From NCBI RefSeq assembly GCF_003334255.1, contig NZ_QOWU01000007.1: a stretch of DNA of 64,000 nt. One strand, given 5' to 3'. Of this stretch, positions 36,335 to 44,767 are shown piece by piece. The translations under genes were made by a program, and so were the position numbers. This DNA comes from Escherichia coli (GTDB lineage Bacteria; Pseudomonadota; Gammaproteobacteria; Enterobacterales; Enterobacteriaceae). The notes under the pieces are model-generated. The model ran no database searches, was not told where the DNA came from, and saw only the letters and a list, made by a program, of their open reading frames with translations. How positions within the stretch are numbered: the first letter of the stretch is position 1; the number at the start of each line of letters is the position of its first letter.

Positions 36335-36997
36335 TTAGAGATGAGTAGTGCCAAATGCGGCATTCCAGTCGTGTTCGAACTTCTCTATAGCTGACTCTAC
36401 CGCAGGGGTGTTGAGCATTTGTTGCGCTACATCTAAGGGCAGGGTGATGGATTCACATCCTGCCAGTAAACAGTCCAGCGCCTGACGCGGCGTTTTAAAG
36501 CTGGCTGCCAGCACCATGCTTTCTGGCGCGTGCATTTCTAACAGCGTTTGCAGCTCCTGAACCGTACGAATGCCGTCTCCGCCCTGGGCATCTACGCGGT
36601 TAACATACGGAGCAACGTATTTTGCCCCTGCCAGTGCGGCTAATAACCCTTGTGCGGCGCTATATACAGCAGTGCCAAGTGTAGTAATACCCTCTTTTTT
36701 CAGTATTTTAATTGCTGCCAGACCTTCGGAAGTCACCGGGATTTTCACCACAATACCCGGAATAGCGTCGCGCAGGCGCTTCGCTTCTTCCACCATCCCC
36801 TGCGCGTCGCGGCTCATGGTCTGAGCAAACAGAATGCCCTCATCACCAATCGCTTTTTGCAGACGCGGCAGCACTTCCCATATGGACTCCTTGCTGGCAG
36901 CGATAATGCTCGGGTTAGTTGTCACCCCGGCAATGGGGAATATGCGTGCCAGACGTTCGACTTCTGCGACGTTAGCGGTGTCCAGATACAGTTCCAT
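36335..36997 (-). CDS. fsaB: Fructose-6-phosphate aldolase 2
   Basis: 220-aa [35 protein letters not shown]. Confidence 0.95.
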
Positions 36998-37008
36998 GAT
37001 GTTTCCTT

Positions 37009-39510
37009 TTACAGTTCCAGTTCATGTTGCAGCAGGCTGGCGATAGCGTCGGCAGAGGCGGCGTTAACCAGCGCGTTACGGAATTCTTCGTGCATGATGC
37101 GGCGAGCGAGGCGCGAGAAAATGCGCATATGCTGATCGCCCGCAGCGTGTTTGTTCAGGGTTAACATAATGATGAATTGCGCTTCATCATCGCCCCAGCG
37201 CACCGGCGCTTGCAGACGCGCCACGCTGATGGTGGATTGCTCAATGTGTTCTGATTTGCTGTGTGGAATGGCAAAACTAAAGCCCAGACCGGTAGAGAAA
37301 ACGGCCTCGCGCGCCCACAAGTCGGCTTCCAGTTTACGCGGATAGCGGCAGCGGCCCGCCAGCAGCAGGTTATCGGTCATGCCTTTGAGCACTTCTTCTT
37401 TGCTGCGCCAGTCGCTTTCCAGTGTGATGCACTCGGCGGTGACCAGCGGTGCGTCTTGTTGGGTCATGCGGAATTGCGCCAGCAGGTGTTCCACTTCCAG
37501 CGAAGTACGGCAGGCCATTGCCTGGTTGAGCAACTTGCGGCACTCACGGCTATCAAGTTGCGCCATCCGAGCTTTCGCCGCCGGAATTGATGGTGCGCTC
37601 ATGCTGAGTTCATCCAGCCCTAAGCCGACCAGCAACGGCAGCACGGAACCTTTCGCTCCCAGCTCACCGCACAGACCAATCCATTTGCCCTGGCGATGCA
37701 CCGCTTGCACGGCGTAATCGAGCGCCCGCAAGAATGCCGGATTCAGGCTGTTGTAGTGACGAGTAACCTTAGCGTTATCGCGATCCACCGCCAGCAGATA
37801 CTGCGTCAGGTCATTACTACCAATACTAAAGAAATCAATCTCTTCGCAGCATTGATCGATGATGAACATCACCGACGGCACTTCCAGCATGATGCCGAGC
37901 TGGATTTTCTCATCAAACGGAATGTGTTCGTTACGTAGTTGCTGTTTGGCTTCCGCCAGTTTTTCTTTCACCCATAAGATCTCTTCCATTGAGGAGATCA
38001 TCGGGATCATGATTTTCAGGCTGCCGTGAGCGGAGGCGCGGAGGATCGACCGTAGCTGCGTGGTAAACAACGACGCGTACTCTTCATAAATACGCACGGC
38101 GCGATAACCGAGGAACGGGTTTGCCTCTGCGGGAATGTTCAGATAATCAACGGGTTTGTCGCCGCCAATGTCCATAGTGCGCACAATAATGCTGCGTCCG
38201 TTGGCGGATTCCAGCGCCTGACAAAAAATGTTGTACAACTCGCTTTCGCCCGGTGCGCTGGTGCGATCCATATAGAGCATTTCAGTGCGGAACAAACCAA
38301 CGCCTTCCGCACCATTGCCGAATGCGGCCTGCGCTTCCACGGAGTGAGCGATGTTAGCGGCAATTTCAATGCGGATACCGTCAGCGGTACGGGCTTGTTG
38401 GGTCAGCCAGACACGCTGTTGCTCACGCAGGGCGTCCTGTACGCGGGCTTCTTGCTGATAATAACGAGCTACGGCTTCCCCTGGCTCAACCACAATCGCC
38501 CCGGCGTTGCCGTCGATATAAATCGTTTGTTGCTGCCACGGAGTAAGGGCATCAATATCCACACCAACCAGCGTTGGAATGTTGAACGAACGGGCAAGGA
38601 TCACCGTATGTGAGGTGGTGCCGCCGCTTTTGAGCAACAATCCTTTGAGGTGATTTTTATCCAGTTCGAGGAACTGGCTGGGGGTCAGTTCATCAGCCAT
38701 ACAAATGGCGGGCTGCGTCAGTTTGCCCGGTGCCGGGAAGCGTTGCTCACCGTAGATTTGCTGGAGTAACTGGAAGCAGACGTCGCGTACGTCCAGGGCA
38801 CGTTCTTGCAGGTAGCTGCTGCTGGAACGGGAAAACTCTTCGCAAAAGTGATTCGCGCTGGCAACAATTGCTTCGGCGCAGCTTAATCCGGCGCTGACGC
38901 CTGCCAGTAAATGTTCGCGCAGGGAAGTATCGCCAGCCAGGGATCGGTGAGCTTCCAGAATCGCGCTGGTAGCACCGTCGCTATCCAGCAGACGAAACTC
39001 AATGTTTTTCAGTACCAGCGTCAGGCCGTTTTCCAGTGCGGATTGCTCGGCGTCAACGCCTTTGGCTGCGGGAAGATTACCCAGCGCATTGAGATCTAAA
39101 GAAGAGATCGGCGTCAGAATGCCGCCTGCACTACCGCTGCACACGGTGCGGGCGCGGATAATTTGCGGATTCAGATTGGTCAGTGAAACCGGCAGTGGTT
39201 CCAGTTCGTCAGATTTAACTTCCGCCAGCGGCGCATCGCAGTGGGGGAATTCATCGCGCAGCCATTGGCTTAAACGCTGGTGCGCTTCCTGTTCGTCGGC
39301 CCCGGAAATCAGTAACTGGCAGTTATCGCCCGCCAGCGTATCGGTGCCAATCAGCGCAAGGGCGCTTTTGGCGTTGCCCTTGCGGTCAGTGCGCAGGTTA
39401 TGCCACTCAATTTGTGATGAAAAAGTATTACACAGCGTTTCAACGTGGCTTGCCGGACGCGCATGTACGCCGTTAGGTAGCTCACAAATAAATTCCACAA
39501 TCAGGGCCAT
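37009..39510 (-). CDS. ptsA: Multiphosphoryl transfer protein PtsA/FrwA (EI-HPr-EIIA fusion)
   Basis: 833-aa [27 protein letters not shown]; PEP-utilizing enzyme region with HPr-like and EIIA domains. Confidence 0.92.
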
Positions 39511-39818
39511 TGCCTCTCTCCCGGTACGGTTTTCTGTTTACAGGATAAGAGCGCACGGCAACGGCCTGCCATGTGACAAATCTGCCAAAAGCTGGACAAA
39601 TGTAATGTAACCGTCAATTTGCGACGCGTCTCACAAGACGCTGTTTTGCGGCATGCTTCCGGTTTATCGCAAGTTATGAGGCGGATCGCATTTTTGTACT
39701 GATATTACAAAAGTCCAGTAAATGGCCTTTTTATCCACTGTTTGCTCCGCCTGCGATTGCCTATTGTTTCCTCCATCAAAAATATGGACATGGGCTTTCG
39801 CAAGCCCGGGAGCAGCTT

Positions 39819-43580: not shown

Positions 43581-44424
43581 CGTTGTGGAAACGCGCCGCG
43601 ATGATGTGGCGCGCATTTTCAACATTCAGCGTTATTCACTGAATGACGGCGAGGGCATTCGTACGGTGGTCTTTTTTAAAGGCTGTCCGCATCTTTGCCC
43701 GTGGTGTGCTAATCCGGAGTCGATCTCCGGCAAAATCCAGACGGTACGCAGAGAGGCGAAATGTCTGCACTGTGCGAAATGTTTGCGTGATGCGGATGAA
43801 TGCCCCTCCGGGGCGTTTGAACGGATTGGTCGCGATATCAGCCTTGACGCTCTGGAACGGGAAGTGATGAAAGATGACATTTTCTTTCGCACGTCCGGCG
43901 GCGGCGTCACGCTTTCTGGCGGCGAAGTGTTAATGCAGGCGGAGTTTGCTACCCGTTTTTTACAGCGACTGCGGCTGTGGGGTGTGTCATGCGCCATTGA
44001 AACTGCCGGAGACGCACCAGCCAGCAAGCTATTACCGCTGGCGAAATTGTGCGATGAAGTGTTGTTCGATTTAAAAATTATGGACGCGACTCAGGCGCGG
44101 GATGTGGTGAAGATGAACCTGCCACGCGTGCTGGAGAATCTGCGTTTGCTGGTGAGTGAGGGCGTCAACGTGATCCCGCGTTTACCGCTGATCCCTGGTT
44201 TCACGCTCAGCCGGGAGAATATGCAGCAGGCGCTGGATGTACTGATCCCGCTGAATATCAGGCAGATCCATCTGTTACCGTTTCATCAGTACGGCGAACC
44301 GAAATACCGCCTGCTGGGGAAAACATGGTCGATGAAAGAGGTGCCTGCGCCGTCGTCAGCTGATGTGGCAACGATGCGCGAAATGGCAGAACGGGCCGGA
44401 CTTCAGGTTACCGTGGGAGGTTAA
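43546..44424 (+). CDS. pflC: Glycyl-radical enzyme activating enzyme PflC (radical SAM)
   Basis: ORF 43477..44424; ATG at 43546 gives 292 aa MTSSAGQRISCNVVETRRDD with CPHLCPWC radical-SAM cluster motif; overlaps the pflD 3' end by 35 nt. Confidence 0.92.
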   Translation: MTSSAGQRISCNVVETRRDDVARIFNIQRYSLNDGEGIRTVVFFKGCPHLCPWCANPESISGKIQTVRREAKCLHCAKCLRDADECPSGAFERIGRDISLDALEREVMKDDIFFRTSGGGVTLSGGEVLMQAEFATRFLQRLRLWGVSCAIETAGDAPASKLLPLAKLCDEVLFDLKIMDATQARDVVKMNLPRVLENLRLLVSEGVNVIPRLPLIPGFTLSRENMQQALDVLIPLNIRQIHLLPFHQYGEPKYRLLGKTWSMKEVPAPSSADVATMREMAERAGLQVTVGG

Positions 44425-44425
44425 A

Positions 44426-44767
44426 ATGGCATACCTGGTGGCAGTAACCGCCTGCGTAAGCGGCGTGGCGCATACTTATATGGCGGCGGAACGGCTGGAA
44501 AAGTTGTGCCTGTTAGAGAAGTGGGGAGTCAGCATTGAAACTCAGGGCGCGCTGGGAACGGAGAATCGTTTAGCGGATGAGGATATCCGCCGGGCGGATG
44601 TTGCTCTGTTGATTACGGATATCGAGCTTGCCGGTGCCGAGCGATTTGAACATTGCCGCTATGTGCAATGCAGCATCTACGCATTCCTGCGTGAGCCGCA
44701 GCGGGTAATGAGCGCGGTGCGCAAAGTGCTTTCTGCGCCGCAGCAAACCCATCTTATTCTGGAGTAG
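44426..44767 (+). CDS. frwD: Fructose-like PTS EIIB component FrwD
   Basis: ORF 44363..44767; ATG at 44426 gives 113 aa MAYLVAVTACVSGVAHTYMAAERLEKL. Confidence 0.9.
   Translation: MAYLVAVTACVSGVAHTYMAAERLEKLCLLEKWGVSIETQGALGTENRLADEDIRRADVALLITDIELAGAERFEHCRYVQCSIYAFLREPQRVMSAVRKVLSAPQQTHLILE

Follow-up and report, generated by a model that had tools for sequence, protein, structure and literature searches.

A glycyl-radical enzyme locus of Escherichia coli, very probably the 1,5-anhydromannitol branch of radical-mediated glycolysis, with a clone-private pflD frameshift and YijO as a candidate regulator

Escherichia coli carries a cluster in which genes of a phosphotransferase system (PTS) stand beside the glycyl-radical enzyme gene pflD, and the question that this locus raises is which compound it handles and whether it is still in working order. 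Here, we analyzed the cluster in a stretch of 64,000 nucleotides of E. coli contig NZ_QOWU01000007.1 (the window), where it forms two divergent operons, gldA-fsaB-ptsA and frwC-frwB-pflD-pflC-frwD, and where pflD is frameshifted. A sequence-only reading of this DNA had held that the substrate of the PTS and of PflD was not established, and that a published, biochemically defined substrate would turn the locus into a known pathway. That statement is out of date, given that 1,5-anhydromannitol-6-phosphate (AM6P) has been reported as the substrate of PflD (PMC12441222) and that the protein has a Protein Data Bank (PDB) entry, 8yjo. The pathway was worked out in 2024 and is no longer an open question. 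We consider it highly probable that these genes serve the use of 1,5-anhydro-D-mannitol (AM) in E. coli, as one branch of the 'radical-mediated glycolysis' known from the literature, and that the pflD lesion arose recently and is confined to a single clone.

The assignment of PflD comes from biochemistry and from structure. As summarised in section 5.1 of PMC12441222 from the work of Ma et al. (J Am Chem Soc 2024;146:26187, PMID 39283600), a PTS phosphorylates 1,5-anhydroglucitol and 1,5-anhydromannitol, after which AM6P is cleaved by PflD and 1,5-anhydroglucitol-6-phosphate by YbiW, both to 1-deoxyfructose-6-phosphate. The same section describes a reaction that depends on the glycyl radical and a pathway on which E. 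coli and many gut bacteria can grow anaerobically (PMC12441222). The PDB holds 8yjo under the name 'Probable dehydratase PflD', and 8yjn and 8id7 under the name 'YbiW'. The intact PflD allele matched 8yjo_A over residues 1-765 (E=0, 1741 bits) and lies at the same chromosomal locus, indicating that it is the orthologue of the crystallised K-12 PflD. PflD scored 653 bits against the glycerol dehydratase 1r8w and 117 bits against the pyruvate formate-lyase 1h16. It falls in the PFL2/glycerol-dehydratase subfamily (TIGR01774) and in the equivalog NF007437, with the RVxG motif, the GCxE Cys loop and an adjacent activase gene all present. Its Cys loop reads GCVE, which is typical of the eliminase group. 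By similarity, PflD is much nearer to the dehydratase/lyase (eliminase-type) glycyl-radical enzymes than to true pyruvate formate-lyase.

The neighbouring genes supply candidates for the steps on either side of PflD. Every gene that the sequence-only reading had named is present, as judged by the open reading frames (ORFs), NCBIfam and the RefSeq annotation of a near-identical record, and the divergent layout was borne out by ORF coordinates and strands. Between 33000 and 48000, the order is katG-yijE-yijF-gldA-fsaB-ptsA/frwC-frwB-pflD-pflC-frwD-yijO-eptC-ppc, with gldA-fsaB-ptsA running leftward, frwC-frwB-pflD-pflC-frwD running rightward and 308 bp between ptsA and frwC. All of gldA, fsaB, ptsA, frwC, frwB, pflC and frwD scored above the curated NCBIfam cut-offs, while yijO scored below them and the two halves of pflD did so solely through the split in the gene. 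The fused phosphorelay protein PtsA (37009-39510, - strand; 833 aa) had been described with the domain order EI-HPr-EIIA, but the NCBIfam domain positions give HPr-EI-EIIA, with HPr at residues 10-86, EI at 180-683 (TIGR01417, 481 bits) and the fructose-type EIIA at 690-830. The histidine motifs of all three domains are intact, AIPHSK among them. FrwC (39819-40898, + strand) is the membrane permease, an EIIC of the fructose family (equivalog NF007787, 720 bits; cut-off 426). Two EIIB proteins with an active-site Cys are encoded, FrwB (40913-41233, + strand; NF007783, 210 bits, cut-off 135), where this Cys is N-terminal (VTACPSGVAHTYMAAE), and FrwD (44426-44767, + strand; NF007747, 224 bits, cut-off 153; VTACVSGVAHTYMAAE), and they share the active-site motif VTAC(P/V)SGVAHT. 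By its domains and motifs, the locus would thus encode a full fructose-family phosphorelay, from the HPr, EI and EIIA histidines through the EIIB cysteine to the EIIC permease. The radical-SAM activase gene of PflD, pflC (43546-44424, + strand; NF007483, 627 bits, cut-off 326), starts 35 bp before the 3' end of pflD, and its CX3CX2C cluster motif is CPHLCPWC at residues 47-54.

The leftward operon also encodes two enzymes that would act after PflD. FsaB (36335-36997, - strand) is fructose-6-phosphate aldolase 2, which scored above the cut-off with both NF009296 (383 bits) and TIGR00875 (354.6 bits; cut-off 245.95). GldA had been listed with the cluster, but lies just outside the bounds 36335-44767 set for it, at 35221-36324 (- strand), as the last gene of the leftward operon. 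It is an NADH-dependent glycerol/L-1,2-propanediol dehydrogenase (equivalog NF047954, 752.6 bits; cut-off 700), and the RefSeq annotation agrees. FsaA and FsaB reportedly cleave 1-deoxyfructose-6-phosphate to glyceraldehyde-3-phosphate and hydroxyacetone, and GldA is said to reduce hydroxyacetone to 1,2-propanediol. Both the NCBIfam name of GldA and the gene linkage fit these steps. An earlier literature tied gldA-fsaB-ptsA loosely to dihydroxyacetone and to anaerobic expression (PMC6643234).

In the window, pflD (41284-43580, + strand) is a pseudogene through a one-nucleotide deletion. The sequence-only reading had already noticed the frameshift, and comparison with intact alleles located the missing base, in agreement with the RefSeq flags. 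A single C is lost between 42383 and 42384 (ACTAACGCC to ACTAAGCC), at codon 367, and the gene is split into ORFs of 368 aa (41284-42390) and 397 aa (42387-43580). The truncated protein consists of residues 1-366 followed by Lys-Pro, with the stop TGA at 42388-42390, and there is no compensating change 3' of the deletion, the downstream sequence being identical to that of intact alleles. Both the catalytic Cys419 (within GCVE, residues 418-421) and the Gly741 that bears the radical (within RVAG, residues 738-741) are encoded in the out-of-frame C-terminal part (42387-43580, + strand). Its ORF begins with a TTG (42387-42389) that overlaps the upstream stop as TTGA (42387-42390), and no Shine-Dalgarno-like sequence is visible upstream of that TTG. 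Against the NF007437 profile (765 positions; cut-off 1109 bits), the N-terminal half (1-366) scored 800.2 bits and the C-terminal half (369-765) 899.7 bits, and the window has no uninterrupted chain of about 765 aa above this cut-off, while the intact allele of strain 300709 encodes 765 aa. With Cys419 and Gly741 out of frame, the window allele of PflD is expected to be inactive.

We then asked how widely this allele is shared. RefSeq also marks pflD as 'frameshifted' in strains G1/2, G6/7 and G8, and a 34-mer across the deletion junction occurred in 3 of the 5426 complete E. coli genomes that made up our survey set, namely in these three. The probiotic Symbioflor 2 contains six E. coli genotypes, and these are three of them; they were obtained in 1956 from a single donor and have plasmids in common, G6/7 and G8 being near-clonal by the published description (PMC4358396). 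When the 9-kb locus was aligned with that of strain 300709, which has an intact pflD, the deletion was the only difference in 9002 aligned columns, and the eight remaining proteins of the near-identical G1/2 record carry the same RefSeq accessions as in 300709. Compared with the G1/2, G6/7 and G8 chromosomes, the window differs by one base in 15 kb, at position 47505, a synonymous change at Leu17 of eptC (TTG vs CTG), and the window therefore adds to this lineage a fourth sequence that is very close to the other three. Taken together, these results indicate that the frameshift is one very recent clonal mutation, a lineage-private null allele of the Symbioflor 2 G1/2-G6/7-G8 group.

Since the strains with the deletion are close relatives of each other and were all sequenced in the same project, the deletion might also be a sequencing or assembly artefact, so that pflD would be intact in the living strain and the locus an ordinary functional AM pathway. 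Some 7 nt downstream of the deletion there is a Dam site (GATC), and methylated motifs can give systematic base-calling errors on some platforms. However, the missing base is not part of a homopolymer (AACGCC to AAGCC), the same local sequence occurs in many assemblies from many platforms with the deletion in these three alone, and the window, as a slightly different sequence distinguished by the single nucleotide at 47505, has the deletion as well. We therefore regard an artefact as unlikely.

A further alternative is that E. coli can in general do without the locus and is losing it, with the frameshift as one case of a widespread trend. The sequence-only reading had suggested that the locus may be decaying in this strain and had proposed to compare its conservation across E. 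coli genomes. When we ran this comparison, the 9-kb locus had some match in all 5426 genomes and was covered to at least 80% in one place in 5394 of them. For pflD alone, coverage was at least 80% in 5397 of the 5426, partial in 21 and absent in 8. In 60 rows taken at even steps down the match ranking, a sample that reveals indels but not nonsense mutations, pflD was exactly 2298 bp long in 59 of 59 full-length matches, and thus no indel was present in the sample. Strain TB354 (record L086, 2810-6741) has an IS3-family insertion in ptsA and a deletion that removes the N-terminus of ptsA along with frwC, frwB and the 5' two thirds of pflD. This is an independent inactivation of the locus and, with the genomes that have a partial pflD or none, it is what could be said for a trend of erosion; such losses are rare. 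In contrast, PflD identity stays at 74-99% across the range from Escherichia to Vibrio, and the neighbours and non-coding operators are conserved as well, which is a signature of purifying selection, and the lesion in the window is a single one-nucleotide deletion on an otherwise perfect haplotype, found in 3/5426 genomes, with the other genes intact. The species keeps the locus, and erosion as a general trend is very improbable; neither in the species nor in this strain does the locus appear to be eroding.

Still less credit can be given to the legacy annotation, by which the locus would comprise a cryptic fructose-type PTS and a second pyruvate formate-lyase with its activase, making formate and acetyl-CoA from pyruvate. 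Under the names still used by RefSeq and NCBIfam, PflD (NF007437) is a 'formate C-acetyltransferase' and FrwC a 'PTS fructose transporter subunit EIIC'; PtsA has been cited as belonging to a putative PTS for the anaerobic breakdown of fructose (PMC6643234), and a 2023 Salmonella study still groups pflD with (presumed) pyruvate formate-lyases. The bit scores given above, 653 to a dehydratase-type enzyme vs 117 to pyruvate formate-lyase, run against this annotation, as do the GCVE loop, the name dehydratase chosen by the PDB depositors, and the published biochemistry with 1,5-AM6P as the substrate (PMC12441222). Moreover, the conserved partners of PflD are an aldolase and a hydroxyacetone/propanediol dehydrogenase, not enzymes of acetyl-CoA. 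The database names predate the 2024 biochemistry and are misleading; they probably misled the sequence-only reading, and the locus should no longer count as a mystery. It is equally hard to credit that the split pflD still works, through termination at the TGA (42388-42390), restart at the TTG (42387-42389) and assembly of the 368-aa and 397-aa chains, for although stop and start overlap (TTGA) and the downstream ORF is in frame with an unchanged residues 369-765 holding Cys419 and Gly741, TTG is a weak start codon and has no Shine-Dalgarno-like sequence before it, no natural two-chain PflD occurred in 80 species loci (all matching residues 1-765, or from residue 2 or 4), and the allele is private to one clone, as for a recent null mutation and not a selected architecture.

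Having weighed these alternatives, we return to the AM branch as the preferred reading and to the company that pflD keeps in other species. A cross-species scan with one genome per species gave 80 loci, in which neighbours were identified by tblastn with the E. coli proteins. PflD identity across the 80 loci was 74-99%, and the genera included Escherichia, Citrobacter, Enterobacter, Klebsiella, Yersinia, Rahnella, Serratia, Hafnia, Edwardsiella, Gilliamella, Zophobihabitans, Necropsobacter and Vibrio. PflC was a neighbour in 77 loci, FrwB, FrwD and YijO in 74 each, FrwC in 72, PtsA in 71, FsaB in 63 and GldA in 42. The genes that flank the cluster in E. coli are seldom found near PflD (EptC in 20 of the 80, YijF in 3). 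Loci with no YijO match mostly end before the expected position of yijO. These results show a conserved, mobile module, and the linkage supports a functional tie of the Frw PTS, the radical enzyme, the aldolase and YijO. By the same comparison, yijO, which the sequence-only reading had left out, belongs to this module. In five loci, from Kluyvera and an Enterobacteriaceae isolate (L035, L036, L044, L053) and from Edwardsiella piscicida (L080), PflD-PflC and a YijO-like AraC gene are present at about 9800-15000, and no frw PTS, ptsA, fsaB or gldA was found within 10 kb. The neighbours in the Kluyvera locus L035 are a PaeX-like esterase and two small ORFs that belong to no family. In Enterobacter cloacae DSM 26481 (L018, 13482-14331, - strand), yijO is present but split into ORFs of 152 and 129 aa, as a pseudogene or through a sequencing error.

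We next compared the DNA between ptsA and frwC in 20 genera by alignment. In most of them it varies little in length, measuring about 300-316 bp, and it contains ungapped conserved blocks. Two of these are 36-bp operator-like elements, inverted relative to each other and gapless in the 20 genera, with the consensus ATTACAwwwrTCCAGnwwwTGnCnnTTTTnTCnnCT. The left element (ATTACATTTGTCCAGCTTTTGGCAGATTTGTCACAT; 39571-39606, - strand) faces ptsA, carries two wwwRTCCA-type half-sites 21 bp apart and stops 23 bp before TATCCT, a conserved -10-like hexamer (39547-39542, - strand). The right element (ATTACAAAAGTCCAGTAAATGGCCTTTTTATCCACT; 39704-39739, + strand) faces frwC, again with two wwwRTCCA half-sites 21 bp apart, and its end lies 22 bp before another conserved -10-like hexamer, TATTGT (39762-39767). 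Between them lies a CRP-like palindrome (TGCGAcgcgtcTCACA; 39620-39635) with one mismatch to TGTGA-N6-TCACA, one of only two sites with at most one mismatch in the 64-kb window; its half-sites are kept across genera as GTGAGA-N6-CTCACA. No FNR box with two mismatches or fewer was found in the intergenic region.

To gauge how specific the elements are, a position weight matrix (PWM) of 42 bits was built from the 40 arms of the 20-genera alignment. In the 64-kb window, it gave two matches of at least 12 bits, the right element at 52.4 bits and the left at 48.0 bits, whereas shuffled 64-kb sequences gave no score above 3.4 bits. The operator pair was also present in taxa outside the PWM set, namely Vibrio, Gilliamella, Zophobihabitans and Necropsobacter, and the PTS-less loci of Kluyvera and Edwardsiella piscicida carry a single operator copy 75-125 bp upstream of pflD. 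Among the 80 loci, 78 had at least one PWM match of at least 15 bits, and the two misses are among the shortest loci, with little sequence 5' of pflD. Two simpler searches were less telling: an inverted-repeat search missed the pair, the arms being too diverged for an exact 6-mer seed in register, and the strict pattern TTACANNNGTCCAG was too strict across genera and, alone, not significant in the window. An Rfam search of 34000-47000 found no RNA family.

A third box, AAAATATGGACA at 39779-39790, resembles AAAAGCTGGACA within the left operator and contains the reversed half-site TGGAC. It lies 3' of the putative frwC -10 hexamer, is partly kept in Enterobacteriaceae as TATGGATATGGGC, and might be an auxiliary or a repressing site.

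Which protein might bind the two elements? The gene yijO (44754-45605, - strand) encodes an AraC-family transcription factor with HTH_18 (E=4.5e-21) and HTH_AraC (E=8e-12) matches within residues 179-270, and no Pfam family was matched by its N-terminal 170 or so residues. YijO is listed as uncharacterised in PMC4797297 and PMC9308461. The literature searched yielded neither binding data for YijO nor a description of the operator/CRP architecture of the ptsA/frwC intergenic region. Direct-repeat half-sites 21 bp apart are typical of AraC-family operators (AraC, RhaS, MelR). Both the C-terminal double helix-turn-helix in YijO and direct-repeat half-sites about 21 bp apart next to -35 regions are found here. 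We propose YijO as the activator of the locus because the conserved operators and yijO travel with pflD across Enterobacterales, Orbaceae, Pasteurellaceae and Vibrio. On balance, we lean towards YijO as a dedicated activator of the anhydromannitol pathway that would sense AM or its phosphate, bind at 39571-39606 and 39704-39739 and, with CRP at 39620-39635, induce both operons; the pair is conserved from Escherichia to Vibrio, and the operator stays with pflDC where the PTS is absent. The predicted operators offer a route to function for an orphan AraC-family regulator; the kind of system is unsurprising.

The genes yijO and frwD are convergent and overlap by 14 bp (44754-44767), and frwD-yijO is among the convergent 'excludons' detected by RNA-seq (PMC12288877). 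Given this overlap, transcription of the catabolic operon might interfere with that of its own putative regulator.

These elements can be combined into a tentative scheme for AM use. By its domains and motifs, PtsA would be phosphorylated by phosphoenolpyruvate, and the phosphate would pass through the EIIB proteins FrwB and FrwD to the substrate as it crosses FrwC, giving AM6P; conserved gene linkage points to Frw for this step. PflC would then place the glycyl radical on Gly741 of PflD, and PflD, acting through Cys419, would open the ring of the anhydro-sugar by C-O cleavage to give 1-deoxyfructose-6-phosphate, which is the published step. FsaB would split this product to glyceraldehyde-3-phosphate and hydroxyacetone, and GldA would reduce the latter to 1,2-propanediol, as is reportedly the case. 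Comparative genomics suggests that both operons would be switched on by YijO bound at the two inverted 36-bp operators abutting the -35 regions, with CRP between them. In the window, PflD ends at residue 366, before both catalytic residues, and AM use would be blocked at ring opening, with the genes for import, aldolase and dehydrogenase intact. If the frameshift is real, the three Symbioflor 2 genotypes cannot open the AM6P ring yet still import and phosphorylate the polyol, which would be a small metabolic defect of a probiotic that is on the market and might make it prone to sugar-phosphate stress.

Several points weigh against this scheme. The substrate of PflD is taken from a secondary summary (PMC12441222) and the names of PDB entries. 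The FsaB and GldA steps are taken as reported, together with gene linkage, and Frw/PtsA, in preference to another PTS, is a putative AM carrier proposed from linkage. Kluyvera and Edwardsiella piscicida keep PflDC with no frw PTS within 10 kb, indicating that the enzyme is not strictly dependent on the transporter. The proposed link between YijO and the operators comes from comparative genomics. A scan of the 308-bp intergenic region for the sigma-70 consensus found no promoter, with fewer matches overall than in shuffles; an activator-dependent promoter would explain this result, though the scan lends the model no support. Finally, the nearness of the Dam site to the deletion makes a shared assembly error possible.

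Comparison with known systems places the locus further. The K-12 gldA-fsaB-ptsA/frwCB-pflDC-frwD cluster has the same genes in the same order and place, with katG-yijE-yijF on one side and yijO-eptC-ppc on the other, and the window differs from it in that pflD is a pseudogene by the one-nucleotide deletion at codon 367. The ybiW-ybiY-fsaA cluster resembles the locus in combining a paralogous glycyl-radical enzyme (YbiW, 480 bits to PflD) with its own activase and an adjacent paralogous fructose-6-phosphate aldolase, and the two branches yield the same product, 1-deoxyfructose-6-phosphate (PMC12441222). The substrates are epimers, with the glucitol configuration for YbiW and the mannitol configuration for PflD. 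Unlike the present locus, the YbiW cluster has no PTS genes, gldA or yijO-like regulator within the 20 kb examined, and in K-12 it lacks the 36-bp operator, with no PWM match of at least 5 bits. Co-regulation of the ybiW branch by YijO through the 36-bp motif was considered and dropped, the motif being absent from the K-12 ybiW-ybiY-fsaA region.

The eliminase-type enzymes, such as glycerol dehydratase (1r8w), CutC, HypD and propanediol dehydratase (5i2a), have the fold family, the Cys loop and the C-terminal RVxG in common with PflD, and are its best non-orthologous PDB matches at 600-650 bits. PflD differs from them in acting on a phosphorylated anhydro-sugar by ring-opening C-O cleavage, and not by elimination from a diol, an amino-alcohol or hydroxyproline (PMC12441222). 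On the regulatory side, the locus recalls the AraC, RhaS and MelR sugar regulons in its AraC-family gene beside catabolic genes, its direct repeats 21 bp apart with the proximal one abutting the -35 region, and its nearby CRP-like site. It would differ from them in a putative N-terminal sensor domain of YijO that matches no Pfam family, and in operators that form an inverted pair for two divergent operons.

The most extended form of the locus was seen in Vibrio harveyi (L084, 2790-19512), where it also encodes a GutQ-like sugar-phosphate isomerase, an oxidoreductase of the Gfo/Idh/MocA family, a YbiV-like sugar phosphatase and a mannose-6-phosphate isomerase, with an RmlD-like reductase between pflC and the aldolase gene. 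The Gfo/Idh/MocA oxidoreductase shares its family with known 1,5-anhydrofructose reductases. This gene set suits a mannose-configured substrate and hints at a wider anhydro-sugar/mannose pathway.

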